From Chiloscyllium plagiosum (lineage: Eukaryota): a DNA stretch of 64,000 bases. Under the pieces are notes generated by a model, which was not told the DNA's origin, searched no databases, and saw nothing but the letters and a program-made list of their open reading frames with translations. A program made the translations under genes and the position numbers. Shown here in pieces: positions 4,339 through 60,450 of this stretch; the first letter of the stretch is position 1, and the number at the start of each line of letters is the position of its first letter. The stretch covers positions 427,942-491,941 of the forward strand of contig NC_057752.1 of NCBI RefSeq assembly GCF_004010195.1, read 5' to 3'.

Positions 4339-5365
4339 GTGGATGTATAGAGGATCTGGGTGTCCTTGTCCCCTCCCCCCACCTTGTCTCAGTCTCCCCT
4401 CCCCCCACCTTGTCTCAGTCAAATCCCTCGAACTCAGCACCGCCTTCCTAACCTGCAATCATCTTCCTGACCTCTCCGCCCCCACCCCACTCCGGCCTAT
4501 CACCCTCACCTTGACCTCCTTCCACCTATCGCATTTCCAAAGCCCCTCCCCCAAGTCCCTCCTCCCTACCTTTCCTCATTCCTGAAGAAGGGCTTATGCC
4601 CGAAACGTCGATTCTCCTGTTCCTTGGATGCTGCCTGACCTGCTGTGCTTTTCCAGCAACACATTTTCAGTCCTTGTACACTAGTTAATGAATGTAGACA
4701 GGCAGGCGCAGGAAGCAATTAGGAAGGCAAATGCTTTATTGGCTTTCGTTGCAAAGGATTTTAGTTCAGAAGTTGGGATGTTATACAGATGTTGGCAGTT
4801 ATACAAGGTCTTGATGAGACTACAGTAGAATATTACATACTGTTTTGGTCTCCCTACCCAAGAAAGGCTGTACTTGCCATCGAGGGAGTGCAGCAGAGCT
4901 TCACAAGGCTAATGTCGAGGCTGGCAGGACATCCTGTGGAGAGAGAGGTTCAACTGGGCCTGGATTCACTGGAATTTAGAATGATGAGAGGGGATCTGAT
5001 TGAAACATAAAATTCTCATGGGGCTGGACAGTCTAGATACAAGGCGGATACTACCATTCGTTGTAGAGTCTAGAATCAGTGGACACAGTCTCAGAATGTG
5101 AAGTAGACCATTTAGGACTGAGATGAAGAAACGTTTCTTCACTCAAACGGTGGTGAACCTATGGAATTCTCTATTACACAACGTTGTGGAGACCAAGTCA
5201 CTGAATATGTCCAAGAAAGAGATAAATGATAATTTTTTAGATTTTAAGGCATCGGGGGTATGTGAAGAAAGTGAGGATATGGCATTGAGACATGATCATA
5301 CTGTCCAGCAGAGCAGGCTTGAAGGGCAAATGGCCTACTCTGCTCGTTGTTTCGATGTTTATGGT
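4339..5365 (+). mobile_element. CR1 3' fragment nested in the older CR1
   Basis: FWSPYPRK..IEGVQQSFTRL, LEFRMMRGDLIET and RFFTQTVVNLWNSL. Short GAAGT repeat at 4334-4338 and 5366-5370. Confidence 0.75.
4370..4669 (+). mobile_element. Penelope-like 3' terminal repeat fragment with hammerhead core
   Basis: Flanked by 8-bp GTCCTTGT at 4362-4369 and 4670-4677. Closely similar to the terminus of the PLE at 52988-54075. Confidence 0.8.
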
Positions 5366-6121
5366 GAAGTTTTTTGAAGAGGTAACAGATGGTTAAGCAC
5401 AAGGATGTTAATGTGGTGTACATGGACTTCAAAACACATTCAGTACAGTGCCACACAACAGACTTGTAAGGAAGGTAATAGGTTATGTAATAAAAGGGCA
5501 GTAGCACCATGGATACAAAATTGGATGAGGGATCAGAAAAAAGAGTGACAGTTAATGGCATTTCTCAGGCTGGAGTACTGTTGATAGTGGAATTCCTCAG
5601 GGCTTGACATTGGGACCTTTGTTTTTCCCGATTAAATATAATTAATCCAGATCTTGGTGTGCAGGGAACAACTTCAAAGTTTACAAATGACACAAAATTT
5701 GGAAGAAGAGAACAGTGTAGAACTTCAAAAAGGCATTGATAAGTTGATGGAGTGGGCAGATAGGCATCAGATGAAGTTCAATGCAGAGAAATGTGAGGTG
5801 ATACACTAATCTTTGGTACAAAGAACATAGTGAGTATAAAATAAAGGGTATTATTCTAAAGGAGCAGAGAGACTTGGGAGTATAGTTGCATCAGTCATTG
5901 AAGGTGGCAAGACAGGTAAAGAGAGCAGTTAGTAAAGCATATGGTGTCCAAGGCTTCATTAATAAGGACATAGAATACAAGAGCAGGGAGGTTATGCTGA
6001 ACCTATATTGGACACTGGTTAAACCTTAGCTGGAGTATTGTGTATAGTTCTGGGTGTCACACTCGAGAAAAGCTAAAAATACATTGGAGCGAGTGTAGCA
6101 GAGGTTTATGAGAAAGTTTGG

Positions 6122-8295
6122 TTAGAGTCATAGAGTCCTACAGCATGGAGACAGATCCTTTGGCCCAAACTGGTTCATGCCGACCAAAATGTTCATCTAC
6201 GCTAACCCCATTTCCCTGCACTTGGCCCATATCCTTCAAACCTTTCTTATCTATGTATTTGTCCAAATGCCTTTTAAATGTTGTTAATGTATCTGCCACA
6301 ACAACTTGCACTGGTAGCTCATTCCATATGTGTACCATCCTCTGTGTAAAAAAGTTGCCACTCAGGTTACCTTTCATTCTTTGCCCTCTAACCTTAAACT
6401 GATGCCCTCTAGTCCTCGATTCCTCAACCCTGGGAAAAAGACTAAGTGCATTCACCCTATCCATGCCTCTCACGACCTTATACACCTCTATAAGGATCCC
6501 CCCCAGTCTCCTACACTCTAAAGAAAATAGTCCCAGCTTGTCTAATCTCTCCCTATAACTCAGACCATTGAGTCCTGGCAACATCTTTGTAAATTTCTTC
6601 TGCACTCTTTCCAGTTTAATAACATCCTTCCTACAACAAGGTGACCAAAACTGAACAAGTGCAACCTCACCAATGCCCTGCACAACCTCAACATAACTTT
6701 CCAAGTTCTATACTCAGTGCCCTGACTGATGAAAGCCAGTGTGCCAAAAGCCTTCTTCACTGCCCTGCCTATCTGTGACTTCACTTTCAGAGAACCGTGC
6801 ACCTGAACCCCAAGATCCCTTTGTCCCACTATACTCCTTAAGGCCCTACCATTCACCATGAAACTCCGACCTTGATTTGACTTTCCAAAATGCAACACCT
6901 CATACTTATCTATATTAAAATCCATCTGCATTTCCCGGCCCATTTCACCAGCTGATTAAGGTCCTGCTGCAATTTCTGATAACCTTCCTCACTGTCCACA
7001 ATACCGCCTGTTTTAGTGTCATCAGGAAACTTACTAATCATGCCTTGTACATTCTCATCCAAATCATTAATATAGTTAACAAACAACAATGGGTCTAGCA
7101 CCAACCCCTGAGACACTCCACTAGTCACAGGCCTCAAGTCCAACAAGCATTCTTCCACTATTACCCTCTGCGGCTTACCAGCAAGCCAACTGTGTATCCA
7201 ATTTGCCAGCTCCCCCTGGATTCCATGTGATTTGACCTTCCAGAGCAGCCTCCTATGCGGAAACTTATCAAAGGCCTTACTGAAATCCACATTGACCCTG
7301 CCCTTGTCAACCTTCCTAGTCACTTCATCAAAGGACTCTAACAAATTTGTGAGGCATGATCTCCCATGCACAAAACTGTGCTGACTGTTCCTAATCAAAC
7401 CCTATCTTTCCAAATTCATATATATCTCATCTCTCAGAATCTTCTCATGTAACCTACCTGACACAGATGTTAGGCTCACTGGTCTACAGTTCCCAGGTTT
7501 TTCTTTGCAGCCCTGAATGAATAAGGGCACAACATTTGCTACCCTCCAATCTTCTGGGACCTCACCCATGGCTAACGATGATGCAAAAATATCAGCCAGT
7601 GCCCCCGCAATTTCTTCTCCAGTCTCTTGCAGTGTTTTTGGATATATCTGGTCAGGACCAGGAGATTTATCCAGCTAATACATCCAACACCACCTCTACT
7701 GTGATATGGATTGAACCCAAGATATAATCAATAACTTCCCCAAGTTCCTAAGACTTCAAGTCTTTCTCCATCGTAAACACAGAGGAGAAATACTCATTGA
7801 GGACCTCGCCCATCTCCTGCGGTTCTACACATACATGTCCACTTTGGTCTTTGACGGGTCCTATTCTCTCTCTAGTTATTCTTTTTCCTTTAATACACTT
7901 AAAGAACCTCTTTGGATTCACCCTAATCTTCTCAACCAAGGCTATCTCATGTCCCCATTTTGCTCTCCCCGATTTCCTTCTTCTGTAAACTCCTGTATCC
8001 CCTATGGGTACTTCCAGGGATTCCCTTGATCCCAGCTGCCTGTACCTGACCATGTTTCCTTCTATTTTCTGGTCAAAGCCTCAATATCTCTTGTCATCCA
8101 GTGTTCCCTATTCCTGTCAATCTTGCCCTTCACCCTAACAGGAACATATGGGCCTTGAACTCTAGCTATCTCACTTTTAAAGGCCTCCCACTTGCCGGAA
8201 GTCCCTTTGCCTGCAAACAAGCTACTCCAATCAACCCCTGCAAGCTCCTGTCCTGTTCCATCAAAATTCACCTTGCCCCAATTTAGAACTTGACG
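6122..8295 (-). mobile_element. CR1/HER1 LINE, 5'-truncated, RT through 3' tail
   Basis: SQHSFVHGRSCLTNLLESFDEVT, VTSGVSQGLVLDPLLF, KFPDDTK and LERVQKKFTKMLPGL. Tail with CTATGACT-like repeat at about 6122-6140. Confidence 0.9.
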
Positions 8296-8334
8296 ATAGG
8301 TTGGAGAAGTTGGGACTATTTTCCTTGGAGAGGA

Positions 8335-10885: not shown

Positions 10886-10894
10886 ATGAATCCC

Positions 10895-11412: not shown

Positions 11413-11419
11413 TAACCCT

Positions 11420-13429: not shown

Positions 13430-16400
13430 ATTTTGATTTAGCTCCTTCCGGCGCTATCAACTTCTCCGTCATGTTTGATTGTTTACACTGCCCATAACGG
13501 GCCTTGCCAGGGAGCTGACCTTTAACACCTCAGTGGGGCGATCCCAATCCTTTAAGCCTGGGGTCAGAGCATTGAAGATTAACTGTCTGTACATTTCATG
13601 GGCGTACATTCCAGCAGCCCCCATGCAGCAGGTGCCATGCACAAATCACCACCTAGTGTGGGTGGAGCTTCATCTGTTTGGCATCCAGCTCGGGTCCACA
13701 TACTGGCCCTTTAACAACCTGCTGCTGGAGGGTGAGCGGTTCCCAGAACTCGTTTTGTTAGTTGTGGGCTGGCTGGAGAACGAGGCAGGGGGGCTTCCCC
13801 TCCTTGAGGCTATGGTGGGATGTGGGAAAGACTTACATCTGCATCTTCAGCCAGGAGTACACAAGGCAGAAATCCAGGATCAAAAAGTTGGAGAAGGAGA
13901 AGCTCAACCTGAAGTAATGTCTTGGTCAACCCGATGTGGACTCAGCCCTGCAGAGTGTGTACGAAGAGAAGAAGGCCGCGCTCCAAGACCTGTAGCTCAT
14001 TGTGTCCTAGGCCGTATACATGAAGGTGCTCCTTGAGGACGTGGACTGTGGCTCCCCCTTCAACTCACTGGAAAAAAGACTCCTTGTGCTGCTGGCCAAC
14101 AACAGGTCCCTCGCCTCGGATGCGGAGGACATCAGGGCCCAGATCAAAGCCTGTTACTCAGCTCTGTTCTCTCTGTATGTGTCCAGCAAGGATGCTTGCA
14201 GTTTTGTGGAAGGACCTGTTGCAAGTCGGCCTAGGGAATGCCAGGATGCTCGATGCTCCTATCACTTTGGAGGAGCTGACTGGTGCCCTCACCTAGCTCT
14301 CAAGGGGCAAGTCCCCAGGGCTGGACAGGCTAACTGAGAGTTCTTCAGGGCATTCTGGGATGTCTTGGGAAGCGACTATGCATGGGTCCTGGAGGAATGT
14401 TTTGCTGCTGGAGAGCTGTGCCTGTCATGGTGCAGGGAAGTCGTCATCCTGCTGCCAAAAGAAGAGAGACCTTCACTTATTTAAAAAACAGTGTCCAGTC
14501 TCCCTTCAGATTTTTGTCATGGTATTGTCATCTCGCCTGGAATCAGTGATGGTCCACATAATCCACCCTGACCAGTCTTACACAGTCTCCAGTTGGAGGA
14601 TCCATGACAACGTGCATCTGGTTCGGGACCTGATCCATTTTTCCCAGAGTACAGGTCTGTCAAGCACCTGCCTGTTTCTCAGTCAGGAAAAGACATTCAA
14701 CAGGGTGGATGATGAGTATCTTGTCTGGTCAGCTGCATTCCCTGTACGTGGAGTCTTTCCTGTGCCTCTTGCAGAGGAGGTTGTCAGAATTGGCTCTATA
14801 CAAGCTGGGCACTGTTTTTTAATCCTATGCAGATGACATTCTCCTCACATTCACTGAGCTGGCCACCTGGGGAGGATGCATGAGTGCCAGGCGGTGTACC
14901 AACATCAACCTGGCCAAATGTTCCAGCCTCCTAGTTGATCCGTGGTGGGTGGATTCCTTTCCACAGGAGTTATGGAGGTTCAGCTGGAGCGCCACTCATC
15001 CCCTCTAGCTGGGGGTCTATCTTACCTCAGCTGAGGAATCCTGGCCGGTGAATTAGAAGGCACTGGAGGCTCAAGTCTCAGTTCGCCTAGGCCGCTGGAC
15101 AGGACTGCTCTGAGTGCTATCTTACAGGAGCCGGTTTCTGTCACAAACTAACTGGTGGCCTCCATGCTGTGGTACTGGTTGGTCCCTTTGACCCCTCCTG
15201 ATTTTATCACAGAAATCCAGGAGATGCCATTCCACTTCTTCTTGGACATGAAGGTGTGATGTGGAGGTGCTGGTGTTGGACTGGGGTGGACAAAGTTAAA
15301 AGTCCCACAATACCAGGTTAAAGTCCAACAAGTACATTTGCAGACACATTCTATTTGTTCAAAAACCACACAATCTGTCGGCAGTCAATATTTTTTATTA
15401 TCCATGTGACATTTTCTAAATTCCTACTTTGCAAATAGAACCAGTCTGACCCAAGATTGGAATACATACAGACTCTAACCTCACACCTTTAATGCATTGT
15501 CTGAGCTGAGATGTCACTTCTTTTTATAAAACCTTAAGTTATTTTGAGAATGTGACTTGGAGGAAGCTCTGGGATCTACATATTAATGAATCAAAACCTG
15601 CAACCCATTCTAAAAGATAATATACTTAACAGCAATCTAGGTTTGTTCAACATGTCGCATCAGTTATAAAGTCATAGAGCCGCATGACACTGTGATCTTT
15701 TGTGAAAAATTCTGTGTCCTATGATCCTATTCCACTAGCCACCTATCGAAGGTTCAGTTCTCCAAACGCTTGTACTTCCAAATAAACCTGTTGGATTAGA
15801 AACCTGGTGTTGTGTGATTTTTAACTTGGAACAAGAAGAGACACTGAGTCTCCCCATTGAGGAGAACATTCAGTCGCTGGTATGCCTTTGCACTCTGGTG
15901 GCGTCTTTCCACCTTTGCACCCTGCATCAATATGTCCCAGATGGTGCACCCTGGCGATGTATTTTTTCTGCTTTGTGCATGACCTCAATTATGACATGCA
16001 GCTCTTGATTATTGACCACGAGAGTCTGCAAGTCTCCCTCAGGATGCTGCCTGTCGTTTACCAGCATCTGATCAATATCTGGAAAATAGTCAACTTGCAC
16101 CAGGTCTTCCTGCCATCAGGAGCAGCAGCAGCTGTTAGCAGAGAGCCATTGCTCAAGAATCTGCATCTTCAATATCGCAAGTTCAAGTGGCTAGTGGAGA
16201 GGGTGGCCACGGGGCTATCCAGAGTTAGGAATGTGCTGGGTGGCGGAGGCCCGGCCTGGATGTAACTATAGGCCGGTGAGTCTCACTTCTGTTGTGGGCA
16301 AAGTCTTAGAGAGAATAGTAAGGGATAGGATTTATGCACATCTGGATCGCTGTATTCTTCTATGTTCTATGTTCTATGTTCTATGTTGCCACAGGAAATG

Positions 16401-20345: not shown

Positions 20346-21346
20346 GTATCATGTGTACCATGAGTCACCATGAAGTGGTGTCATCAGGAGCAATCAGACC
20401 CATGACTTAATTTGGTTCCATGTACACAGTAATCAAGGCAACTTCATTTTAGCCTGGCTCAATTTATTCTTCACTTAAGCTGATTTTGATTGTTTTTTTA
20501 CTTTTACTGCACATAAGTGAAGTAAAATTGCTTTCCTCGTCTCCAGGCTTTTTGAGTGAAAAATACTGTACGGGAGTCTGACTCCCTTGTCTGTTGTAGG
20601 TGAGACAGAGGATCCATTTTATAGCCAGTGAGATAACAGGTGAATTGGTGGAAAGTGTGCAAAAATCCTCTGAGTAACTCTGCTAACTGATGTCCCATGC
20701 AACATTTGTATACTTATGGCAGTCTGGAGAGTGCGCATTGGACTTACCAGTCTTCTCAGAACCCATCAAGCCACAGTGGAATCAAGTCAATCCCGAGTCA
20801 GAGGGGCTACTTAAGACATACTGGTGAGGATTGTCTAATTTAAAATTTTACAGTATTTTGGTTTTATTCAGGGATCTATTTTGAGTTACACTTCATTTTA
20901 GCTAGGTATGCACAATGTTGTACCGGTATGGGACACTATTTCAACTCGTACGTTGGTTTTTCCAGGCAAGAAATGTCCGAAGAAACCTAATTCTGGCTCT
21001 GGATTCTTACGGGAAACCAGGATTCACTTAAAGTTGTTTCAATTGAAGTGAGGACTTGCTGGCTGAATAGTTTCCCTTGGCTGGAGAGTCTAGAGCTGTG
21101 GATCATAATCTCAGGATCAGAAATTTAAGACCCAAGATGAGAAGTTTCTTCACTTTGTCTTTGGAATTCTGTATTTCAGAGAGCTCTGGATGCTCAGTCA
21201 TGAGTTTATTGGGAAAAAAAGAAATTGATGCGTTTTGGGGTATTAATAAATATAGTGTTAGTGCAAGAAGGTGAAGTTGAGAGATGAGATCAGCCATGAT
21301 CTCGTTGAATTGTAGAGGTGACTGAAAGGGCTAGTCTTCCTCTTGG

Positions 21347-21594
21347 GAGAAAGTGAGGGCTGCAGATGCTGGAGATCAAGGCTGAAAATGTGTTGCTGGA
21401 AAAGCGCAGCAGGTCAGGCAGCATCTAGGGAACAGGAGAATCGACGTTTCGGGCATAAGCCCTTCTTCAGGGCTTATGCCCGAAACAGAAGGGCTTATGC
21501 CCGAAACAGAAGGGCTTATGCCCGAAACGTCGATTCTCCTGTTCCCTGGATGCTGCCTGACCTGCTGCGCTTTTCCAGCAACACATTTTCAGCT
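21347..21594. mobile_element. Fold-back Penelope terminal-repeat element with triplicated hammerhead stem-II unit
   Basis: Two arms of about 90 bp that are near-perfect reverse complements. Centre (AG)AAGGGCTTATGCCCGAAAC x3. 16-bp direct repeat CTAGTCTTCCTCTTGG at 21331-21346 and 21595-21610. Confidence 0.85.
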
Positions 21595-24500
21595 CTAGTC
21601 TTCCTCTTGGCTTTCCAAGTTGAATGAAATTATGGTTAGAACTGTTGGTGCCATGGAGCCATGTCTCAATTTAATAAGCACCTCATTCAAAAATAATATG
21701 AAAAATTCATTTAAACCTCAACGCTTGTTAGTCTTTCAATGTTCAGAAATTAATCCACTCTCGGAATTTTTAATGGTGTTTCTTACATAGGTGTCATCCA
21801 CTTTTTATTGGCTATCTTTCTGAACTTCCACAGGATCTGTAAATCTTTCATTGTTAAGCATTACATTTGAATTGTCTTGTTCAAGGAAACTTCAAAAGGA
21901 ATCAAGCTCCCCACTCAGTCCCAGATTTACTTTTAATCCTTTAACTGTTATTTTTTAAAATGTGAATGGATTAATTAAGGAAAGGAATTGCAAAGCCAGC
22001 ATTGCAATGTACTCCTCCCCTCCACCTCTCAACTATCCCATTTTAATAAGGGTCACTCAGCATCAAACAACATAATTAGGGAATGTGCCAGGGTGGACAA
22101 GGTTCCTGTTAGCAAAATCAGAAACAGAAACCTGTGCCTTGGCATTAAAGCAGATTCCACATATTGCACTGTTGGATTGGATTCCTGCCCCTTGCTGTGC
22201 ACTCCCAGCAAGAATTTCAATGTGTTTTTGCATTGCTTTTATTTTGAATAAAAATGAACAGTAATATAAATGGAATTGGTGTAAATCATGTTCTCAAAGC
22301 CTGTGTTTTCTCCTCAATGATGCAGACAATATTATATTAGAGAAAGAAGAATTTCAGGACTGAGGACCTGGTGCTGTAAAGATAGGAACACATAAATAAG
22401 ATAGAAGAGAAATACTGGGCTTAAAGAATCACTGACATTGAAATGCATAAGCTTTTAAAACACAAGCTTTTCATCACAGTGGGGGGGTAGTGAGAGAGCA
22501 GGAGATTGCTGCAACATAACAGGCAAAGATGTCACTATATAAAAGCATGAATCAAAGGTCGCTTACAACAAAGCTATGGGTCAAGGAAAGCCATGATTGG
22601 AAGTAATACTGTGGTGTGAAAAGGCATGGGGTCTCTTATTTCTACTTGGCAATTAGTTTGAACAACTGGAAGATCATAAAACATCAGATATTGTTGCATC
22701 CAGCATGAACCAGGTCATAACAAAAATGGTAGAAAGAGATGTCTACTTGAAAAGAATGAGACCTATTGCTACCTTTTGGACCCGGTGACATAGTGAGGCT
22801 TGGAGAAGCCATCTATATGCTTCCTCATAAAAAGTTATGCACAGATTTATCATATGTGAGACTAGTGTGTGCTTTTCTTATGGGTATTTAAGGTTAATGT
22901 TTTGAGATGAATCAATGCAGTGAATTATCAAATATTACTGTTTCCAGCTTTATGAATCCATTTAAAGGGTAAAAGGACTTACCCAACATTCTCCATATCC
23001 ATAATACTTTTAAAATCTTACATCTACATACACTTGCTGTTTGTAAAATTTCACTTCCTGCTGTTATATGTTTGTCAGACCTTTCTCAGTTTTTCTCTTT
23101 TATAAATGCCCATCATCACCTTTATAAAGAATTTACATATATAAACATGTCACATGGTAAGTATACCCCCCCCAGCAGTGGTGACACTGAAGTACCCAAT
23201 TTTGTGTCTCCCCAATTCACTGTACAATACAGTAGAGAATTTCCAATGTTCTGTCAGCTCCGTTTTCCAAATTATCTTGTTGAACTATAAACACCAAAAT
23301 CAATTGAAATTTTAAAAAAAGACAACATTTGACTTTAAAATAGATTTGATATAAAAATAATTCGACACATCCTGTTCCAATTATCTTCTACCCTAAAACT
23401 CTATTTTCCTGGTACTTTGTTTTAATTCCTACAAACAAAGCCATAAGAGAGGGGTGGGGTGCACCCGACCTGCAATTGTCATACTTACTGCCTGTAGGAC
23501 TTATTACACCTTATAACATCACTGTTGTCATATCATTATAACTCATTGTAAGCAGCAACCGAGGAGATCTGCCTGAAGTATGTTTAAAAGCAGTACATCT
23601 TGCATACAAAACACCTGAACACAGGAGCCAGCCATCATGTTCTCTCTGAGTGATTGGATTTCAAAAAGAAATACACAGGGATTTCATTCTTAGTTCTGAC
23701 TGGCAGCCTTGAGCTCAATTTGATTCTGACTTCACCACAGACATTTTCTGCAATTACACCAAATACACTGTAAATGACCAGAGGCTGTTTACATAAAAAC
23801 AAATAGACTTTGTGGCTTTAAAGAAATTATTCTCCGTCTTAGCAGCAGATATGTTGTCCATGATATGGCAAATATCCTTAAAGTAACATATTGTACATAT
23901 ACACATAAATATATATGTGTGTGCATATATACAAGTGCCATGTTCGAGATATGACCCTTTTTGCAGATGTAATCTGATTTTTTTTAAAGAGAAAGGAACT
24001 GAAGCCTGAAATTGACAACTGTGCTCTGATTGACTTCAGCAGTAGCAACTATCAGGATTTTCAACTCAGACTTGTGGTGTTAAAGGGCTAGCAGCGAATG
24101 AATATTAGTGTACAATACTAAAAGAATCCACTGTTACTTTTTAAAATCACATACCAGGTGCCACAATTTGTTACAAATGCAAATTAATCGGAATGGAAAT
24201 GATACCACCTGCCAGCTTGGTCGATTGATTTAGGTGAAATAAGTTTGCAGTGATCTATATCCAGAAATTTTCAAACACCTGACAATCTGTAACTTGACTT
24301 ATTCCATGAATTAACTTGTAATAAGTCTGACCTTGAATGAAGTTACATTCCCCTTCACTACTTCAGTAACACTTGACTTGTCTCCAACATTCATGTTTCA
24401 ACATTACAGCTGTGACAATTGAAAAGTACTTCTTTGACTGTAAAGTTGTTTGAGGCCCTAGAATCGTGACAGGCACTATATGAATGCTAGTCTTTTTTTC

Positions 24501-27233: not shown

Positions 27234-29247
27234 TGAGGTTGCTGGAAAAACTCAGCAGGTCTGGCAGCATCTGTGAAGAGAAATCAGAGTTACCATTTTG
27301 GGTCAGGTGACCCTTCCTCAGAACGGATGATAGCTAGGAAAATGTTGGTTTATATGCAGAAGCTAGGGTGGGGGAGGGGCTAAGGAGTAAATGATAGGTA
27401 GGGATACAGCGCAAAGAGAGAGAAGAACAGTTGAACAGACAAAAGAGTCAGTAATGATCTGGCTGGGAGGGTGAATAGCTCTTAATGGAGATTGTTTGTG
27501 ACTAACAATAGGTAGTGTCTAATGGCAGACTATGTCATAACAAGGCCTGGTGTGTGTTGTAGGGGACTAGGACATTGGGGGAGTTCAGGCCCTAAAATTA
27601 TTGAACCTGATATTGAGTACAGAGGGTTGCAGGGTCCCCAAGCGGAAAATGAGGTGTTGTTCTTCCAGCTTGCGCTGAGCTTCACTGGAGTACTGCAGTA
27701 AGCCTGAGACAGATGTTGGCCAGGGAACATGGTGGTGTGTTACACTGGCAGGTAACTGGAAGTTCAGGGTCTTTTTTGTAGGTAGCATATAGACGTTCTT
27801 CAAAGCGGTCACCCAGTCTACGCTTCATTTCCCCAATGTAGGGGAGACCACAATGTGAGCAGTGAATGCAGTAGACTAAATTGTGAGAAGTGAAGGAGAA
27901 AGTGAGGTCTGCAGATGCTGGAGATCAGAGCTGGAAATGTGTTGCTGGAAAAGCGCAGCAGGTCAGGCAGCATCCAGGGAACAGGAGAATCGACGTTTCG
28001 ATTCGAAGAAGGGCTTATGCCCGAAACGTCGATTCTCCTGTTCCCTGGATGCTGCCTGACCTGTGAGAAGTGAAGGTAAAGTACTGCTTCACCTGGAAGG
28101 TATGTTTGAGCACTCGGTTACTGAGGAGGGAGGAGGTAAATGGGCAGGTGTTACACCTTCAGCGATTGCAGGGGAAGGTATTATGGGGCTGTAGGAGGAT
28201 TGTTGGGAGTGAAGGAAGAGTGGACCAGGGTGTCCCGGAGGGAATGGTCTCTGCGGAAAATGGACAAGGGAGGGGAGGGGAATATGTCTGGTGGTGACAT
28301 CTCGCTGGAGGTGATGGAAATGGTGGCTGATGATCTTCTGGATGTGGATGCTTGTAGGATGGTAGGTAAGGACAAGAGGAACCCTATCGCTGGTGCAGGA
28401 GAGAAGACAGGGGGTGAAGGCAAAAGTGCAGATGGGTCAGACCCGGTTGAGGGCCCTGTTGACAACAGTGCTGGGGAGTCCTCAGTTGAGGAAGAAAGCG
28501 GACATTTCGGACACTCCTTTGTTGAAGTTGGCCTCATTGGACAGAAAAGGAGGAACTGGGAGAATGGAATGGAGTCTTTACAGGAAACTGTGTGCGTGGA
28601 TGTATAGTCCAGGTAACTGTGGGAATTGGTGGGTTTATAGTGGATATTAGTGGCCAGTCTATCCCCAAAAATGGAAACAGAGATGGTGAGGAAGGAAAGG
28701 GAGGAGTCAGAGATAGACCAGGTGAAAGTGAGGCCAGGGTGGAAATTGGAAGTGAGGTCGATTAACTTTTCCAATTTCAGACAGGAGAGGGAAGCATTAT
28801 CAATATCTTGCAGAAAGAGTTGTGGGTGGGGGCCAAAATAGAACTTGAACAAGGAATGTTCCTGGATTCAAAGCACAAGGGATGAAACTTCAGTTGAAAT
28901 CCATGTGGGGTAAATCTGAACCAGAGGCAGTCACTGGGAATGTGATTTGGCTGTGGAAACGAGTTTTAGCAAATACCTGATCAAACACCAGGAATGACAG
29001 TGAAATTAATGTCAGTGGACTGGAGAACAGATTGAAATCCCGTCAGAGAGAGGAGCAGATCGTCAAGGTGGGCATGCCTCAAAGAGATGTGGCCGTGAGT
29101 TAAATACTAAATAAAAACTGAAAGAACTGCAGATGGTATAAATCAGGAACAAAAACAGAGGTTGCTGGAAAAACTCAGCAGATCTAGTAGCATCTATGCA
29201 GAGAAATCAAAGTTAACATTTCAGGTCTGGTGACCCTTCCTCAGAAT
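27234..29247 (-). mobile_element. Older Penelope-like element (RT C-terminus, GIY-YIG remnant) with direct terminal repeats, splitting a Deu-SINE
   Basis: DRLATNIHYKPTNSHSYLDYTSTH..CKDSIPFSQFL and AQRKLEEQHLIFRLGTLQP. About 90-bp direct repeats at about 27235-27323 and 29158-29246. TGGGAGAACT on both flanks. Confidence 0.85.
27897..28061. mobile_element. Fold-back Penelope terminal-repeat element nested in the older PLE
   Basis: Inverted arms. 15-bp TSD TGTGAGAAGTGAAGG at 27882-27896 and 28062-28076. Confidence 0.85.
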
Positions 29248-30576
29248 TGGGAGAACTCCCCTGCTGTTCTTTGAAATAGTCCAGCAAGACCTTTTACATG
29301 CTCTTTATAGGGCCTCTGATTATTGTCTCATGCAAAACCTCTCACAGTACAACACACTAACAGTATGGCACTGGAGCGTCAGCCTGGATTATGTGTTTAT
29401 TGAATTGAAATTATTGTCACGTGTACCGAGGCACAGTGAAAAGCTTTGTCTTGCGAGCAATACAGGCAGATCACAGAGTTAAATAGCATAGATAAGTAAA
29501 TAATAATTAGTAATAAGTAAATAATAATTAGTAATTTTTAAAAGTATGCTATGAAGTTTAAAGAGTGAAGAATGATTGTAGGAAATAGGAAACTTAGATC
29601 TGCATGCAGGAGCTCGCAAAGAGTCGGCCATATCCAGCGCCACCTTGCATCATCTCTGAGACTTGACTCAGGTCAGAATTGTGGATGTCGCTGATGATCA
29701 GCACCTTTTGTGACTCCTCAGATACTGAAGCAGTCCATATCCAAATGAAGCAACACCTGGACAATATCCAGGTTTAGGGACTTTTTTCTTCATTCACAAG
29801 ATATGGGTATTGCTGACCAGGCTAGTGTTAATTGCCCATATCTAATTGCCCAGAGAGCAGTTAAGAATGAACTGCATTGCTGTGGGTCTGGAGTCACATG
29901 TAGGCTAAATCAGATAAAGATGGCAGCTTACTTCCCTGAAGGGAATCAGTGAACCAGATGGATGTTTTCAACAACCAAAAATAGTTTGATGGTCATCATT
30001 AGACCCTTAACTCCCAAGTTTTATTGAATTCAAATTCGACCATCTGCCATGGCAGGATTCAAACTTGGGTCCTCAAAATGTTACCTGTGTTGCTGTATTA
30101 CTAGTCTCACAATAATGCTACTCAGCCATCTCCTCCCAAAGAGGTGGGGATATATTGATAAATGGTGAGTCATATTTGTTCCACACAAGTGCTAGGCAAT
30201 AACCAACCCTAAAGAAGTATCTAACCATCATTCCTTGACATTCAATGGCTTTTCCATTGCTGAATCCCATACTATCAACATTTGGGTCCATAAAAAGATT
30301 ACCATTGACTAGAAACTGAACTGGACTAACCACATAAATACTGGGCTACAAGAGGAGGTCAGAAGGTAGGAATCCAAAGCAAGTAACTCACCTCTTACCT
30401 TCCCAAAGTCTGTCCACAATTTAGGACAAAGCAGCCTTCTTGGCTGGCATCCCATCCACCAGCTTCAACATTCACTCATTTCACCATGGACACAATGGCA
30501 GTGGTGTGTACCATCTACAACTCTCAAAACCTCCTTCAACAGCATTTTCCTAACCTGCAATTTCTACTATCTAAAA

Positions 30577-30702
30577 CCTGACGAAGAAACAGTGCTCCGA
30601 AAGCTTGTGATTTTGAATAAACCTGTTAGACTATAACCTGGTGTCTTGTGGCTTTTGACGTTGTCCGCCCCAGTCCAACACCAGCACCTCCACATCATGG
30701 AC
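30577..30702 (+). mobile_element. Solo Penelope-like terminal repeat (family 2) beginning with a hammerhead core
   Basis: CTGACGA-AGAAACAGTGCTCC-GAAAGCTT at 30578-30606. 11-bp TSD ACTATCTAAAA at 30566-30576 and 30703-30713. Confidence 0.75.
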
Positions 30703-42780: not shown

Positions 42781-42913
42781 GAATTCCTGATGAAGGGCTT
42801 TGGCCCGAAACGTCGGTTTTACTGCTCCTCGGATGCTGCCTGAACTGCTGTGCTCTTCCAGCACCACTAATCCAGAATCTGGTTTCCAGCATCTGCAGTC
42901 ATTGTTTTTACCT
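42781..42913 (+). mobile_element. Solo Penelope-like terminal repeat with hammerhead core
   Basis: CTGATGA-AGGGCTTTGGCCC-GAAACGTC at 42787-42814, followed by the GGATGCTGCCTGA..CCAGCATCTGCAG body. Confidence 0.8.
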
Positions 42914-46545: not shown

Positions 46546-46645
46546 GAAATTCCTGATGAAGGGCTTATGCCCGAAACATCAACTTTCCTGCTCCTCAGGT
46601 GCTGCCTGGCCTGCTGTACTTTTCTAGTGCCACACCTTTTGACCC
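46546..46645 (+). mobile_element. PLE terminal-repeat fragment with hammerhead core, inserted in Gypsy pol
   Basis: CTGATGAAGGGCTTATGCCCGAAACATC at 46553-46580. Confidence 0.75.
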
Positions 46646-49199
46646 AGACTACCAAAGCTACCTAGCATGTTGACCAAGAAATAATTCCATGATTCTGCAA
46701 GGCCCGCCCAGTGCCGTTTGCCCGACAGGCAAAAGTAGAGTCAGAAATCAGCAGCCTGGAAAGGGAAGGAATCATCAGACCAGTCCAGTTTGTGAAATGG
46801 GCAGCACCAGTCGTACTGATTGTGAAGCCCAACAGGTCGATTTGCCTTTGTGGAGATTTTAAACAAATGGTAAACCATTTCTCGCGGCTGGATGAATACC
46901 CAGTTCCTCACATAGAGAACATCTATGCAAAGCTGGCAGAGGGCTATCCTTCACGAAGCTGGAAATGAGTCATGTACTCTTGGTTAGATGAGGATTCCCA
47001 GAAGAATGCGACAATTAATACCCATAAGGGCTTGTTCCTATATACTGCCTGCCATTTGGGGTATCATTAGCCTGTGCAATTTTTCCGCGGACGATTGAGA
47101 ACATTTTACATGGTCTACCCCAGATTGCCATTTAGCTGGATGATGTGCTAATAACAGGGAAGACCAATCTTAAGGTAATCTTAAAAACTTGGACGTAGTC
47201 CTTGGACATTTTTCCAAGGCAGGCGTGTGACTTAGAAGGGAAAACTGTGTGTTCTAGGCACCCCAAGTGACCTACAAGACTAGGTTACACCTGTTGGAAG
47301 ATAAAGTGAGGACGATCAAAGGTGCTGTGGCTCCTACATCTCTACCGAAGCTTAGATCTTTCCTTGGCTTGATGAATTATTACGGAAAGTTAATATTTAA
47401 GCTTGCCTCCACCCTGGCACCCTTACATCTGCTATTGGAAAAGGGTCAGCCTTGGAAATGGTATCTTAGCCAAGATTAACCCTTTAGGGAAGTGAAGAAG
47501 CAGCTATCATCATGTAATGTGTTGGCACACTATGATCCCAAATGAGATCTGGTGCTGACATGTGATGCCTTCCCTTATGATATTGGCATAGTGTTGGTTC
47601 ACAGATGGCCCAATGGAGAGGAATACCCAATAAGCATGTGCTTCACAGATTGTGGCTGATGTAGAGCATAAATATGCCCAAATTAAGAAGGAAGGTTTGG
47701 TGATCATCTTTGGTGTGAGAAAGTGCCATCAAAACCTTTACAGACATAAATTTGTAAAAGTAACAAACCCCTGCTAAGGCGATTCAAAGAGGATAAGGCT
47801 GTGCCACCCATAGCTTCAGGTCAAATTCAGTGATGGACTGTGTGTACAATTACAAGTTGGAACACCATCTGGGAGGCCAAGTAGCATGTGGATGTCTCGA
47901 GCCACCTCTGACTGGTGTTGATGCCAATCCAAGAGTTCATTCTGGTTTTAATCTTTCTGGATCCAGTCCTGGCAAAACTAAAACAGCTGATGGTGATGAG
48001 AGAAACAAAAAGGTCATCACAACCAGAACTGAAATGTTTCTGGATGCGGCGAGACCAGATCACCATAAACAACGGCATTTTATTATAGGGAGCAAGAGTG
48101 ATTATCCCGAGTAAAGGTCACCTCCAGATAATAACTGAACACCACCAGGGTCATCTGGGGGTTTCCAAAATGGTGAGACGTTATGTCTGGTGACCAGGAT
48201 TGGATGCAGACATGGCCGCATTGGTTGGGCAGTGCCAGAGTGCCAACAAAGACAAAAATTACTGCCAGCAGCTGCTCCACATTCGTGAGAATGGCCGGGT
48301 AAACCCTGGACTTGACTACATATCGACAATGCAGGTCCTTTCATGGATTCAATGTTCTTAGTCATTGTGGATGCCCACTCAAAGTGGTTAAACTTGCATA
48401 GAGGTCACTCATCAAATATAGGGACGGATGATAGAAATTCTGTGAGCATCTTTTTCAATACATGGACTCTCAAAGGTGTTGGTCATAGACAACAGGCCAT
48501 CATTTACCAGCAAGAAATTTGAGTATTTTCTAAAGTTGAATGGGATTTGGCATACAAGAACAGCTCCATACCATCCATCGTCCAATTGTCTGGCAGACAG
48601 AACAGTCCAAACTTTGAAGGCAGGCTTAAAGAAACAGCCTACAGCTTTTCTCGATACCATATTGTCCCGGTTCCTATTTGATTATTGGACCACCCCTCAT
48701 GTAACTACAGGGTTAGCTCCAGCAGAGTTGCAAATGGAGAGAAGACTCCATGCCTGGCAGCGAGAGTTAAACAGCATCAGGAACACCAATGCTGGACACA
48801 AGACTCCTCTAAAGGAGAGAGATAATTTGCTTCAGGTGATGTTTTTGGTGCCAAATTCATAGAAATGGCCCTGCCTGGGTACAAAGCATGGTCGACGCAA
48901 GGTTAGGTCCTGCGATGTACAAAGTTTGGGTAGGTGAGGCTGTCTTGAACAAGCAGATGGACCATGTTAAAGCTGCAACCTCGTGAACGGGACAGAAGCA
49001 AAACATACCCATCCCTCAGAGTAGCTGAAAAGGCTGTCAGAACCCGTGGGTTCTTCCCTTCTGTACAGTGTCAAAGAAATCTTGAAGTCTGATATGGAGA
49101 CGGTGGATATCACGGCCTCGACCCCTTTACCATCTGAAGGAGAAGATGAATTTCTTCCACAATGCTCCAGGTGCAAGAGGCAAGCTATGGTCCAGTACA

Positions 49200-49322
49200 C
49201 CGAAACATCGATTTTACTGCTCCTCAGATGCTGCCTGAACTGCTGTGCTCTTCCAGCACCACTACTCCAGAATCTGGTTTCCAGCATCTGCAGTCATTGT
49301 TTTTACCTAGTTGATTTTAACC
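49200..49322 (+). mobile_element. 5'-truncated PLE terminal repeat inserted in the Gypsy element
   Basis: Perfect 15-bp TSD CTATGGTCCAGTACA at 49185-49199 and 49323-49337. Body nearly identical to 42805-42913. Confidence 0.85.
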
Positions 49323-51418
49323 CTATGGTCCAGTACATGCCACCCATATCTGACCCTGAGTCAGAGGAACTGGACTTGGTGCAAAAACGCCCCAGGAGAG
49401 GTTACAAGAAAAGGAACAGGCCCATGTCCCCAGACTTAGAGGGGGAGGGATATAGTGATTGTAATGAGGTCAGCCAGGTGGACCTCATAGAATGAGTTCA
49501 CTGATTGGGCCTGTTTTCTGGATCAATCAGGGAGCCCTGACTGACAGGTAAGAACAGGCGTGTCAGACATCCTGTTCACTCTGAGAGCTGGCTCTGAGGA
49601 AGCTGGACCAGTGTCAAGTCCTGTGCACGTGTAAATAAAGGGTGACTTGGTGGCGGGATACCAGCCTCTGAGGAGTTATTTCATGATCCTGACAAGGATT
49701 TGGTCTGGGTACTAAGTTAGGTGAACTCAGCCAGTGCAGATGTTAAGCTTCTGCAATGGTCCCCAGCAATATGGGTGAGGAAGGAATAAGAGACAGCCAG
49801 GGGTGCTGCCCTAGAATTTAAAAAATATTCATTAACTTTCCACCACCACCACTACCACCACCACCATCACCTCCTCCTCCTCTTCCACCCCCTGCCCCAC
49901 CTTTGCTGGAAGCTGCAGCCGTATAGATGCTGGGATGGTGACAGGATCGGGCTTGGCTATGATGCCACCTCGGGTGAATGACCCTTTGACCTTTGCTGTG
50001 TAGGCTCACAACAAAAGAAACAAACAAGAAGCTGAGGTACCCGAGGGCAGCTGGTGCGTGAGAAAATTTATGCCAGGCCCCAAATTAAGAGTGGAAAAGA
50101 TTCAAAAATTGGAGAGAGTATGAAATGACTGAATAGGAAGGGTTCAGAGGGATATGGGTCAAATGCTGGTAAATGTGACTAGATTTATATACCTGACAGG
50201 CATGGAGGAGTTGGATCAAAGGGTTTGTTATCCATACTGTATACCTCTATGACTGTGGATTTCTTGCAGACTCCTGGAAAAAGCCACAGACACAACAGTC
50301 TCTGAATCTCTTCCATTTCTGTTACTGTTTAGGTGTTCTGGTTGTAGGTTTGTAAGTCTGTCCATCTTGGCCCAATTTTCACAGTACAGCTGTGACTTCA
50401 GTGCAAAATTGGTTCACTGCTCACTCGCACAAACATGTTGACGTCAATTTGGAGTCAGATTGAAAGGGAGTGTGTGGAGCCAGACTCCTCTGGGGGAGGA
50501 CACCTCACTCTCTTTTGCTGCTGTGTCTGTGCCAAACCTGCTCTAGGTTCACACCACACCTGAGTGTCGGTTTACAGAAAAGGCTGTTGTTAGGTCTCGA
50601 GTGTGGAGGAGGCTTCACTATCTCTATTCTCAAGATTGGGAAGTGTAGGAGGTGAGGACACATTCTCAGCAGTTAGGAGGTGGAGTCTTTTTAAAATTAA
50701 AAGCCTGTCATCATTTTGACTTTTCCTGAATAAATTATTTCTCCAGTAGGTTTGAAACTGGTGCTATATAATAATCTGTATTTGCTATCAGCTTCCTCTG
50801 CCTATTTGTCTGAAAGCACTAACACCTTTCTTTGTGGAAGGAGGAATTCCAAAGAAAAGTGTAACTGAAATTGAAATTAACAACCCACAGCAGCGATCCA
50901 TAATAAAGGATGTTGAGGGGGTATATTTCTTTCTATCTGTTGACAATATTGGCTTTTCTGTGGTAAATAATAGCTGTCACCAGCGTGGCATAGGCAGAGT
51001 GCTTGGCACCAAAGGGTTTGTGATTGGGCAGCACAATGTGCTGGAGCTTCAATAGATGGCAACCTTTATGGGGTATTTTAATAATTACCCTACTTCATCC
51101 TCTTTAAAAAAACCCTCATTCTTCTGACAGTTTGCCAGTACTGCAGTAAATAGCCACCAGGAGGCAGTAGAGTCTCCTGTAGCATGATACACCATCCCCA
51201 AGGGAAAAAGCACTGGAACATTATGAGGCAGCTCATACACCATCTGCCAGCCTTGAAGCACTGGCAGGGGCTATTGTACATTCCACTAAGACTGTGGGTT
51301 GGTGATCTGTCATGAAGAGGCCAAGCAGGAGACTACAACTCAACAGGAAATAAAACACACCCAAGGTACATTTCTCCTGCCCTACTTCCCCATGTGTCAG
51401 TGGATATCTGCAACTGAC

Positions 51419-51574
51419 CTGCAGGGGATTTTTGGTGCTGATTGCCAGGACCTGGTATTTAAAGTAACACAGCTCGCAGCTCCATGAGCCTCGCTCGCTG
51501 ATCCAGCGGATTAGGCACGGCTGGTGGGTGCAGCGCACGGAACCGTCACACCGACAAGGGCTCAGTAAATCACC
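51419..51574 (-). CDS. MARCHF9: MARCHF9 internal coding exon (probable exon 2), C-terminal part of the RING-CH domain
   Basis: 156 bp, phase 0/0, acceptor ttttgcag| and donor |gtcagt. Encodes [67 protein letters not shown] and YFKYQVL match MARCH9 as I recall it, rather than MARCH4 (SVKCTH, LIKW, GCWSC). Confidence 0.95.
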
Positions 51575-52987
51575 CTGCAAAATAGATAATAAACAGCACA
51601 TTAAACAAATGTATTCGGCAAGTTGGGAGAAAAGTGGATAGTCTCCCTATAGGTGCTGTACACAGGAAGTCACAAGCATTTAAAGAACAAACTTCCAGTC
51701 ATTTCATGTCTTTTGTGACCTCAACACATCCCAAAGCTCTTTATTGCCAATGAAGTACTTTTGAAATGCAATCACTGATCAAAACTGCCTGAAATTTGGC
51801 AGCCAATTTGCACAAACAGCAATGCGATTTACTTTTTTAAAAGTAATGTTAATTGAAGGACAAGTATTGGCCAAGATTTCAGTGAGAGTTCCTCTGCTGC
51901 TTTTCCAGTGGTATCATGGATTCTTTCACACCTGGCAGAAAGGGCAGACAGAATCTTGGCTCAATGTTTCATATGAAAGATAGCACCACTGACAACATAG
52001 CATTCTCTGAATACTGCACTGGTCATGACTGCCTAGATTTGGGGCTTAAATCTCTGGAGTAGGATACAAGAGCCATGCTTGAGACATGGGCTGATCTATT
52101 CAATGGCTCAGAATTTCTGTTTGATTCTTTTGAGCCACGTTGCTCCTGTCATCTCCAACATGTCTCAGTGCACACAGATCCACATCAACTGCAATAACAC
52201 AGCCCACACATACAGAGAGTCTATTATTATCCATTCTAGATGGCACAATTACAGATGACATCCCCACAGGGATTCTGAATCGCAACAGCCCTGTTATTTT
52301 CACACTATGTTTTTAAAAAAATTTAACAAGAGCTCACATCGAGCAACATGCTTTCCTTGATCTGTTCTTTTTGATGAGATTTATTCTAGTCAAACACCTT
52401 CTCCACTGCCCCAATTCACCACGTGCGTCTCCTTCTGGGATACAAAAGCCCTCCAGGTATCTTATGCAAAATTGACATTCTTCATGTGTGAGCTCAGTGA
52501 GGTTTGCCAGGCTGTTCATCCATGATTTGCATTGCAGCCCAGTCAGATGCCAACATCACCAAAAGTCTAGACACAATAAATTTTTCAAATAGGGTGGGAG
52601 ATCACAGGGTAGCAATCAAGACAAAAATCTCTGACTGACTGTAGCACTTATATACTTGCAGGCACCTCCATGCAAAGATTTATTAAATATACTCTGAGGC
52701 CTAATGTTTTTCTTTGTTAACCAATTACCTCAGTTAGTTATAGATCTCACCGACCGGTTATTTTCATTGCTTGCCTTTTGACTATAAATTCCTCCTGTTA
52801 TCCCCAGTCCCAACTGCACATCTACTGAAAGGAGCAGTACCGTCAAGAAGGTACCACTGCCAACTATGCCACTGCATACAATGTCAGGGGTGGAGTGAGT
52901 GAATGTTTGTGGATGTGGTGCCAAGGCTGCTTTGTCCTGGATGGTGTCAGGCATTTTGAGTGTTGCTGGAGTTGCACCCATCCAGCA

Positions 52988-54414
52988 GAAAGTGAGGACT
53001 GCAGATGCTGGAGACCAGAGTTGAAAAGTGTGGTGCTGGAAAAGCACAGGTCAGTCAGCATCCAAGGAGCAGGAAATTCGACGTTTCGGGCATAAGCCCT
53101 TCTTCAGGAATGAGGCTGGTGTGCCAAGCGGGCTGAGATAAAAGGTAGGGGGGGGGAATTTGGGGGAGGGGCGCTGCGAATACGATAGGTGGAAGGAGGT
53201 GAGGGTGAGGGTGATAGGCCAGAGGGGAGTGGGGGTGGAGAGGTCGGGAAGAAGATTGCCGGTCAAGAGAGTGGTGCTGAATCCGGCGGTTGGGATTGAG
53301 ATGAGGTGGGGGAGTGGAAATGAGGAAGCTGGAGACGTCTACATTCATCCTGTGGGGTTGGAGGGTTCCTAGGCTGAAGATAAGGCGCTCTTCCTCCAGG
53401 CGTCGTGTGGTCAGGATCTGCGATGGAGGAGGCCAAGGACCTGCATGTCCGTGGCGGAGTGGAAGGGGGAGTTAAAGTGTTCAGCCACGGGGCGGTTGGG
53501 TCGGTTGGTGCGGGTGTCCGAGAGTGTTCCCTGAAACGTTCCAAAAGTAGGCAGCCTGTCTCTACAATGTAGAGGAGACCACATCGGGGGTAACGGATAC
53601 AGTAAATGATGTGTGTGGAAGTGCAGGTGAATTTGCGATGGATATGGAAAGATCCATTGGGGCTTTGGAGGGAGGTGAGGGTGACGTTTGGGCGCAAGTT
53701 TTGCACTTCTTGCGGTTGCAGGGGAAGGTGCTGGGAGTGAAGGTGGTGTTGGTGGGGGGTGTGGACCTGACGAGGGAGTCGTGGATGGAGTGGCCTCTCC
53801 AGAACGCTGATGGGGTGGGCAGGGAAATATATCCTTGGTGATGGGGTCTGTTTGGAGGTGTCGGAAATGACGGTGGATGATACGATGTATCCAAAGCTTG
53901 GTGGGGTGGAATGTGAGGTCCAGTGGGGTTCTGTCCTGGTGGCGATTGGAGGTGCGGGGTTCAAGGGCAGAGGTGCGAGAAGTGCAGGAGATGCGGTGGA
54001 GAGCATCGTCGACCACGTCAGAGGGGGAATTGCGGTCTTTGAAGAAGCAGGCCATTTGGGTTGTTCGGCAGTGGAATTCCCTCACTATTAGACCTAATCA
54101 CCACATCCTACAAATAATGTTTAATTTAGCATGGCCAATTCATTTAACTTGTATATCTTTCGATTGTAGGAGGAAACCGGAGCTCACAGAGGAAACCTGT
54201 GCAGACACGGGAGAATGTGCAGAATTCCAAAGCCATTCGCATGAGCCCTCACCTCCTTCCACCTATCATATTCCCCCCCACCCCACCTTTTATCTCAGCC
54301 CGCTTGGCACACCAGCCTCATTCCTGAAGAAGGGCTTATGCCCGAAACGTCGATTTTCCTGCTCCTCAGATGCTGACTGACCTGCTGCGCCTTTCCAGCA
54401 CCACACTTTTCGAC
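52988..54414 (-). mobile_element. Penelope-like element 3' half (GIY-YIG endonuclease) with an inverted second terminal repeat
   Basis: TFPCNRKKCKTCA, FTCTSTHIIYCIRYPRCGLLYIVETG..L.ERFREH and PVAEHFNS. Terminal repeats at 52988-53260 (-) and about 54245-54414 (+). Imperfect flank repeat GTTGCACC..TCCA(A)GCA. HE1-like fragment at about 54115-54225. Confidence 0.9.
53076..53111 (-). ncRNA. Minimal (type I, stem-III-less) hammerhead ribozyme motif
   Basis: AUUC-CUGAAGA-A-GGGC(UUAU)GCCC-GAAAC-GUC-GAAU: catalytic core, 4-bp stem II, palindromic ACGU and 4-bp stem I. Confidence 0.75.
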
Positions 54415-59400: not shown

Positions 59401-60282
59401 TTAAGTTGCTATCTATCAGAAAATCATTGAGACAACTGGTGATAGACAACATTTTCTAGATGGATAGTGAGCAGAAATATAGTACTCATCAGGAATCAAT
59501 CCACAGCACAATTTAAAGAAGGATTGTTTCTGCAGCCAAGGGGAGGGGCACAGAGTGAACTGACGTCTTTGTGACAACGACAACATCGCTGTGCATGGCA
59601 TTTCTGTAAATATATTGCACTTTACTGTGATGTTTCTCGTTGTCATTTCACCACTAGCACTCATTGCAAGCTTGCCCTTGAACAATGGCACCTGGAGAAC
59701 TGGATCTGGCTCAGCAAGAATCTGCATTTAGAATATGGAACATTACAGCACAAGCCCTTCAGTCCACCATGTCTGTGCTGACCATGATGCCATTCTGTTA
59801 TTTTCTAATCAACCTATTCAGAAATGTTCATACTTCTGCAGCAGGGTGGACTTGAAACCAGTCATCCTGGTCCCAAATATAGGAACACTATCACTGCACC
59901 ACAGGTACCCTTGCCATTCTAAACTCATCCTATCTGCCTGCACGAGGTCTGTATCCCCCCTGTTCACTGACTGTTGTCTGTTTAAAAGCCTCTTAAACAT
60001 TGCTGTCATATCTGCTTTTACCACCTCACCTGGCAGCGCATTCCAGGCACCTACCATCTTCTGTATAAAAAATCCTTTCCTCATACATCTCCTTTAAACT
60101 TTTCCCCTCTTCACCTTAAACCTATGTCCCGTAGTATTTGATATTTCCACCCTGGGAAAAAGACTCCATCTATCCATCCTATTCATGCATCATTTTATAT
60201 ATGCTTCTATCACATCACCCCTCAGCCTTCAACACTCTAGCAAAAAACAATCCAAGTTTGTCCAACTTCTCCTAATAGGCTA

Positions 60283-60450
60283 AAGTGAGGACTGCAGATG
60301 CTGGAGATCAGAGTCGAGAGTAAGGCGCTGGAAAAACACAGCAGGTCAGGTAGCATCCGAGGAGCAGGAGAATCAACGTTTCGGGCATAAGCCCTTCATC
60401 AGGATTCCTAATGCTGCCTGATCCACTATGCTTTTCCAGCACCACACTCT
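60283..60450. mobile_element. Fold-back PLE terminal-repeat insert in CR1
   Basis: Reverse arm with hammerhead, then a short forward arm. Imperfect flank repeat CAACTTCTCCT(AATA/GAT)GGCTA at 60263-60282 and 60451-60469. Confidence 0.8.
60369..60408 (-). ncRNA. Minimal hammerhead ribozyme motif with canonical CUGAUGA core
   Basis: GGAAUC-CUGAUGA-A-GGGC(UUAU)GCCC-GAAAC-GUU-GAUUCU. Stem I has 5 Watson-Crick pairs plus one G-U. Confidence 0.78.

Follow-up and report, generated by a model that had tools for sequence, protein, structure and literature searches.

Minimal type I hammerhead ribozymes, whose core lacks helix III, have been described from the pseudo-long terminal repeats (pseudo-LTRs) of the fish Penelope-like elements Xena, Poseidon and Neptune; they combine a palindromic 15.2-16.2 segment, a bulge between positions 9 and 10.1 and a G10.1-C11.1 pair, occur as several families per genome and mostly as single copies, and show low activity in vitro (Cervera and de la Pena 2014, PMC4209133). 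In PAc, a Poseidon element of Anolis carolinensis, reverse transcription starts internally at two sites and thereby yields an optional tail, cleavage of the motif is assisted by protein, and uncut RNA is inserted, the cut site being free of RNA ends (Frangieh et al. 2024, PMC11167929). The rotifer element Pen2a_Av has a putative TATA box and initiator in its pseudo-LTR, along with an inverted pseudo-LTR, a tail and a target duplication (Arkhipova et al. 2013, PMC3846280), and the type I hammerhead of non-LTR retrozymes goes back to the pseudo-LTRs of Penelope elements (bioRxiv 10.64898/2026.07.22.740005). The role of the hammerhead in endonuclease-bearing Penelope elements has been called unclear (PMC8557442). 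Here we analyze a 64,000-nucleotide stretch of the Chiloscyllium plagiosum genome (assembly GCF_004010195.1, contig NC_057752.1, positions 427,942 to 491,941 of the forward strand; hereafter the window), in which an initial annotation had noticed about ten hammerhead cores of three families. These motifs are almost certainly minimal type I hammerheads of Penelope-like pseudo-LTRs, and they share the core structure, the pseudo-LTR location, the several families per genome and the mostly single copies of the published fish motifs. The ribozyme motif is thus of an already published kind; what is added is the anatomy of the element, with the placement of the start site and a G signature preceding it, for neither of which the searched literature, subscription papers and supplements aside, gave an earlier description. 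We propose, at a probability of roughly 0.72, that the motif constitutes the first 30-odd bases of a capped element RNA that is copied uncut.

Where the copies begin

Positions are numbered from the C of CUGA as +1. The distribution of 5' ends rests on 1.1 Mb of surveyed sequence, made up of the window and 110 stretches of 10 kb that were picked arbitrarily (1,116,018 nucleotides in total), in which copies were found by the part downstream of the cut site; 309 of 316 copies were kept (198 of family 1, 59 of family 2 and 52 of family 3) and seven, affected by N or by edges, were dropped. In family 1 the interval from -8 to +1 takes 71 of the 198 ends, or 0.085 per nucleotide at risk, a 14-fold excess over background with its mode at -4 (21 ends), compared with 38 ends in +11 to +45 (0.006 per nucleotide at risk) and 21 in -60 to -11 (0.010). 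The same interval holds 28 of 52 ends in family 3 and 15 of 59 in family 2. A pile-up at the cut site, which could have served as a footprint of cleavage, was looked for and rejected, as only 7 of 198 ends lie in +26 to +31, a rate (0.0064) equal to background. The 5' ends thus show no cleavage footprint, and every stub comprising core and tail was made from RNA that was uncut, or had been rejoined, at this site.

The same start is found in copies that extend beyond the pseudo-LTR. Four successive searches walked upstream along the element, and of the last 20 loci 4 included the junction; the near-full-length copies at loci L335 and L321 begin at -4 and -3, respectively, and both run into the open reading frame (ORF). 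Long copies of family 2 carry TATAAA 32 nucleotides upstream of an A at -8, those of family 3 carry it about 28 nucleotides upstream of an A at -4, and those of family 1 have TTTATCT or a similar sequence about 30 nucleotides upstream of an A at -4. The idea that a splice acceptor marks the 5' boundary was rejected because family 1 has no AG at -4 and the upstream flanks are not shared: at 30 family-1 loci these flanks were unrelated or unique, or were the copy's own inverted arm, bar one local duplication.

RNA data came from one raw poly(A) single-cell run, of which about 2% was read; a second run gave 0 reads and the other runs were available as contigs. Among aligned reads 93-94% continue into unlike sequence and represent read-through of genomic copies. 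Read joints and loose ends occur at -4, about +90 and +126, but derive from the same genomic copies and provide no separate evidence.

An extra G before the start

The native base before the start A is C. For each family we counted by eye the base at this position among the first 100 matches listed with a non-native base, and in each of these sets G exceeded the expectation from context. Family 1 gave 65 G, 20 A and 15 T (28 G expected, P 1e-14), family 2 gave 60 G, 12 A and 28 T (28 G expected, P 4e-11), and family 3 gave 47 G, 27 A and 26 T (32 G expected, P 1e-3). At 15 family-2 loci all eight copies with G were truncated at the start, and five of the six with T were long, mutated copies. 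The base before the 5' end is G in 8 of 15 copies ending at -4 versus 31 of 116 ending elsewhere. A subfamily with a native G was rejected as the source, since the sequence flanking copies with G is either unrelated or the copy's own inverted arm. At the 5' junctions of full-length L1 insertions an extra G has been attributed to the cap (PMC11702581).

Ribozyme structure and carrier elements

Our descriptor of the full minimal hammerhead required CUGANGA, a stem II of at least 4 bp, GAAA, the palindrome and NUH. It fixed the presence of one bulged base without specifying which, and this base is A in 214 of 218 hits; the first stem II pair, likewise outside the search terms, is G-C in 200 and G-U in 18. 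From family to family the two stems and the palindrome differ in their letters but stay paired, in line with the covariation that the initial annotation had put forward as a test; these comparisons were read from anchored representatives, whose identity in the core is partly by construction. The stem I pairs are C-G/U-A in family 1, C-G/A-U/C-G in family 2, U-A/U-A/G-C/A-U in family 3 and A-U/C-G/C-G in family 4, so that helix I has 3-4 bp in families 2-4 and four pair types occur at 2.1-1.1/2.2-1.2. The 15.2-16.2 palindrome is ACGU in families 1 and 3 and AGCU in family 2; the 4-nucleotide palindrome that had been assigned to families 1 and 2 is present in both, but is not confined to them, as intact family-3 copies carry ACGU. 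The representatives use GUC, CUA and GUU as cut triplets. Unlike the ribozymes of PMC4209133, those analyzed here have a helix II of 4-5 bp instead of 7-8 bp, and a helix I of 2-4 bp.

In the 60 nucleotides downstream of the core, most families are identical to one another at 19-31 positions (raw counts without a shuffle control), as against 52 within family 1 and 38-42 when family 1 is compared with a minor family. Conservation of the core was higher than that of the downstream part in family 1 (0.95 vs 0.84, 123 copies) and equal to it in family 2 (0.89 vs 0.89, 40 copies); these within-family values are confounded by CpG decay and by subfamily mixing, and those of family 3 are unreliable owing to numbering shifts.

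Each of the three families follows remnants of a protein-coding region. Family 1 (core end 53107) is preceded by a C-x4-C-x2-C linker and a GIY-YIG fragment (53107-54080); the latter was recognized by eye, its Pfam E of 0.004 being below the cut-off, and in related loci Pfam RVT_1 scores above cut-off and the motifs KPADKG and YIDD are found. Family 3 follows a fragment with reverse transcriptase (RT) thumb, linker and GIY-YIG (28867-27322, minus strand) that is interrupted by a family-1 palindrome, and in locus L194 a GIY-YIG fragment precedes family 2. The suggestion of three Penelope-like lineages fits the sequences, in that the three pseudo-LTRs are distinct and a separate endonuclease fragment accompanies each of them. 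The linker is present in families 1 and 3, the two that were inspected, and by its sequence points to the Neptune type; a zinc-finger-like C-x2-5-C-x2-C linker is also a feature of Nematis (PMC8557442). Target duplications of at least 8 bp flank 7 of the 12 window insertions. The 3' ends of the surveyed copies are bimodal, and the two ends, about 35 nucleotides apart, are the optional tail known from Penelope-like elements (PMC8557442), for which a length of 30-40 bp is typical in those with an endonuclease.

The whole family-1 element measures about 4 kb, and two direct pseudo-LTR units are seen in loci L337 and L339. Among the loci walked, which are affected by assembly gaps, no intact full-length single ORF was recovered, and a 752-aa ORF matched no solved structure. 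Two same-family pairs that might have been full elements turned out to be local duplications: in L111 two family-3 copies on the same strand with a spacing of 3.25 kb, and in L112 two family-1 copies with a spacing of 3.68 kb. The family-1 ORF begins with an ATG at +163, two further ATGs lying upstream of it at +15 and +47, and encodes a linker that points to the Neptune type, whereas the ORF of PAc starts in stem II (PMC11167929). The N-terminal extension of the family-1 ORF combines an Ala/Thr stretch of low complexity with degenerate TPNPAP repeats (L335/L339, G000:C22:57806544 onward; L314, L312), and the DNA of these repeats holds telomere-like CCTAACCC words. A piece of the ORF has also given rise to a tandem array with a 213-bp period (14 matches, G000:C1:136150183-136153037, L298-L310), within which the hammerhead unit was matched only once, in L298.

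A proposed insertion mechanism and its alternatives

Based on these observations we propose that the pseudo-LTR contains a core promoter for Pol II, composed of TATAAA in families 2 and 3 or TTTATCT in family 1 and an initiator-like A at -4 or -8, which would start the RNA 4-8 nucleotides upstream of the core. The element protein would prime reverse transcription at an internal site, near +90 or +125 of the front unit, and the polymerizing enzyme would pass the uncut ribozyme to reach the cap and add a C opposite it. The end of the complementary DNA (cDNA) would then join the target, or fold back to produce head-to-head pairs. Priming in the front unit would generate dead stubs of 95-135 bp in vast numbers, and priming in the rear unit the long 5'-truncated copies. 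The ribozyme would cut after +28 or +30 only as a dimer with protein help, and would be dispensable for insertion. The head-to-head palindromes of Pen2a_Av were ascribed to an antisense template, in an account that does not consider a ribozyme (PMC3846280); the present copies fit a cDNA that folds back once it reaches the 5' end of the RNA.

Several observations weigh against this proposal. The alignment ends of family 2 peak at -3 (9 of 59) and not at -8, and 37 of the 198 family-1 ends lie in +1 to +10. The other two ORF-linked copies begin at +18 (L319) and at about +126 (L320); the latter, a long family-1 copy (G000:C43:6723540-6726757, about 983), is a single case in which the 5' end coincides with the position of the tail end. 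No position with many RNA starts or ends was seen in the single-cell run of which about 2% was read. The Penelope element of Drosophila virilis has a TATA-less promoter and an intron between the start and the ribozyme (PMC2377424, PMC4209133). In the main family-1 type stem I has two contiguous pairs only (94 of 118 hits), and in folding predictions an imposed dimer reaches -13.3 to -17.7 kcal/mol versus -16.4 to -20.8 for two monomers, making it about 1-3.5 kcal/mol less stable than these and 6-11 less stable than the best co-fold in all four copies tried; the dimer is drawable but is not the predicted minimum-energy form. This instability and the weak stem I fit the low in vitro activity reported in 2014 (PMC4209133) and the dependence of PAc on protein (PMC11167929). 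As to the G signature, 30% of family-3 copies read A, not G, at -3, and in all six independent clean cases of a target duplication ending in G, this G is also the host base. A G inside the host site is what target pairing of a cap-derived C would give, but endonuclease preference and microhomology could contribute to the excess.

An alternative explanation, which we judge to be rather unlikely, is that the pile-up of 5' ends arises at the DNA level, either because target ends such as G-ATT, left by the endonuclease, anneal to the first match in the cDNA or because the endonuclease cuts the element's own DNA at that place. The G of those six duplications is often followed by AT, ATT is preferred by the PAc endonuclease (PMC11167929), and ATT is read in many family-3 stubs. 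However, a perfect GATTC at +29 to +33 of family 1 is hardly used (two ends at +29 and three at +31, of 198), the G excess of family 2 precedes ACA rather than ATT, and at 4 of 12 fold-back junctions (L214, L227, L232 and L236, by eye) the G is in neither arm. Furthermore, near-full-length copies share the start of the stubs.

The huge number and uniform length of the stubs, together with the derivation of retrozymes from Penelope pseudo-LTRs (bioRxiv 10.64898/2026.07.22.740005), might also indicate a self-propagating non-autonomous family, akin to short interspersed elements or retrozymes, that is spread through short or circular RNA made by ribozyme cleavage. This is very unlikely in light of the fact that copies begin about 30 nucleotides upstream of the cut site instead of at it, that stubs lack an upstream TATA-like box, and that the flanks of the 30 family-1 loci are those described above. 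Non-LTR retrozymes are moreover defined by tandem units (bioRxiv 10.64898/2026.07.22.740005), whereas the window copies are dispersed or head-to-head and form no tandem array of the unit, genome-wide arrays not having been searched. Finally, the motif might have lost its ribozyme function in these families and persist at the start of the RNA because it serves as a promoter or binds protein. This would accommodate the missing genomic footprint, the weak stem I, the unfavorable dimer and the normal insertion of PAc core mutants, but is highly improbable given that core, bulge, closing pair of stem II, palindrome and NUH are all retained while the stems covary across families, and that the PAc motif cuts with protein and shows C3G/G8C rescue (PMC11167929).

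If the RNA indeed starts at the motif and is copied uncut, the ribozyme might act as a switch located at the capped 5' end. RNA left uncut would be the template for insertion, and a protein-triggered cut at +28 would remove the cap and the first upstream ATG, thereby either shutting the element down or enabling cap-independent translation of the ORF at +163. We consider such a role possible though unlikely; self-cleavage turns on cap-independent translation in some RNA viruses (PMC13725137).

Abundance in the genome

Exact-pattern matches in the 3.56-Gb genome number 55,268 for family 1, 6,715 for family 2 and 353 for family 3, and the reversed patterns gave 0 for each of the three; the published counts of minimal hammerheads are about 4,000 and 9,000 per vertebrate genome (PMC4209133). 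Scaling up the survey, whose blocks were arbitrarily chosen, gives genome totals of roughly 630,000, 190,000 and 165,000 copies for families 1, 2 and 3. Exact family-1 matches occur about once per 64 kb genome-wide, and therefore the window is ordinary for this genome. Thus, of the earlier idea that several lineages seeded this locus with ribozymes, the presence of three families stands, but the copies are dispersed dead insertions and the locus is nothing special. At least three further minimal-hammerhead families were encountered (L013:7845-7878, minus strand; L111:6150-6195; L166:9365-9395, minus strand; L020:9012-9038, minus strand). One of them has a 7-bp stem II, lacks a TATA-like box at the usual spot and is preceded by a GIY-YIG of another type (L131).

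Copies in the window

Direct inspection recovered every motif of the initial annotation at its place, but the count of about ten cores has to be qualified: of 12 listed places six are intact by our descriptor (4582+, 21443-, 42787+, 53080-, 54324+ and 60375-) and the other six are damaged. In 100 dinucleotide shuffles of the window the descriptor found a mean of 0.07 and a maximum of 1. The Infernal search that had been advised as a check did not bear the motifs out, in that 4227 Rfam models produced 17 window matches at E<=10 with no hammerhead, that of the canonical type I model included, among them. Partial copies at 21508+, 27894-28000-, 49200+, 15257-15333- and 60411-60455+ had been overlooked.

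Two family-1 insertions retain parts of the parent element. At 4395..4670 (plus strand) a pseudo-LTR copy with the upstream 3' untranslated region (UTR) has an intact core at 4582-4609, with a predicted cut after the GUC at 4609. The insertion at 52984..54414 (both strands), with an 8-bp target duplication, consists of two inverted copies: a 5'-truncated minus-strand copy with linker, GIY-YIG, pseudo-LTR, intact core (53080-53107) and tail, and a plus-strand copy at 54267-54414 with an intact core at 54324-54351.

Three further family-1 insertions are head-to-head. That at 21331..21610 (both strands, 16-bp target duplication) has a left arm at 21346-21471 (minus strand) with an intact core at 21443-21470 and a right arm at 21508-21596 (plus strand) that begins at +5. 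Its center, 21472-21529, is made of iterated 21-nucleotide units (stem II plus GAAAC), which suggests repeated template jumps during fold-back. The insertion at 60263..60461 (11-bp target duplication) joins an intact minus-strand core with GUU at 60375-60402 to a partial inverted arm at 60411-60455 (plus strand). The third, at 27882..28076 (both strands, 15-bp target duplication), lies inside the family-3 GIY-YIG and has incomplete cores at 28005-28030 (plus strand), corresponding to the copy reported as damaged near 28004-28030 and lacking C3-U4, and at 27894-28000 (minus strand). Nesting of family-1 stubs in other Penelope-like copies is thus seen in this family-3 parent and, outside the window, in a family-1 ORF at L339:1910-2043.

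The remaining family-1 copies are stubs on the plus strand. Solo stubs starting at -4 occupy 42783..42913, with an intact core at 42787-42814, and 46549..46643, whose core at 46553-46580 has ACAU in place of ACGU; a stub at 49200..49322 with a 15-bp target duplication starts at +19 and hence is without CUGA.

Both family-3 cores are mutated, as had been reported. The broken parent at 27240..28867 (minus strand) retains the RT thumb, C-x4-C-x2-C linker, GIY-YIG, 3' UTR, TATAAA and a core at 27292-27321 that has lost G12. The solo stub at 29115..29249 starts at about -5, and its core at 29215-29244, for which no strand had been given, lies on the minus strand and has a palindrome broken to AUGU. 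In family 2, a solo stub at 30576..30699 (plus strand, 11-bp target duplication) has a core at 30578-30606 with a mutated 5' strand of stem II. The two copies described as degenerate are indeed so: that at 15683..15834 (plus strand) has a decayed core at 15742-15770 without both boxes, and the remnant at 60884..60989 (minus strand, 10-bp target duplication) retains only the CUGACGA half at 60933-60945.

Pfam searches of seven window ORFs detected only the RT of an unrelated long interspersed element (LINE). Other LINE-type fragments lie at 6138-7401 (RVT_1 at 6910-7398), 14297-14836, 16374-16856 and 62931-63680, and 49025-49495 holds a stop-free frame of 156 aa, whose ORF at 49025-49492 matched no Pfam family.

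Implications

Under the proposal that the motif opens a capped RNA that is copied uncut, the hundreds of thousands of stubs in this genome would be a fossil record of the template RNA of Penelope-like elements. If true, an uncut, capped start would explain why helix I is so short, why solo motifs predominate and why head-to-head palindromes occur. The predicted start further fixes the exact RNA for testing in vitro.

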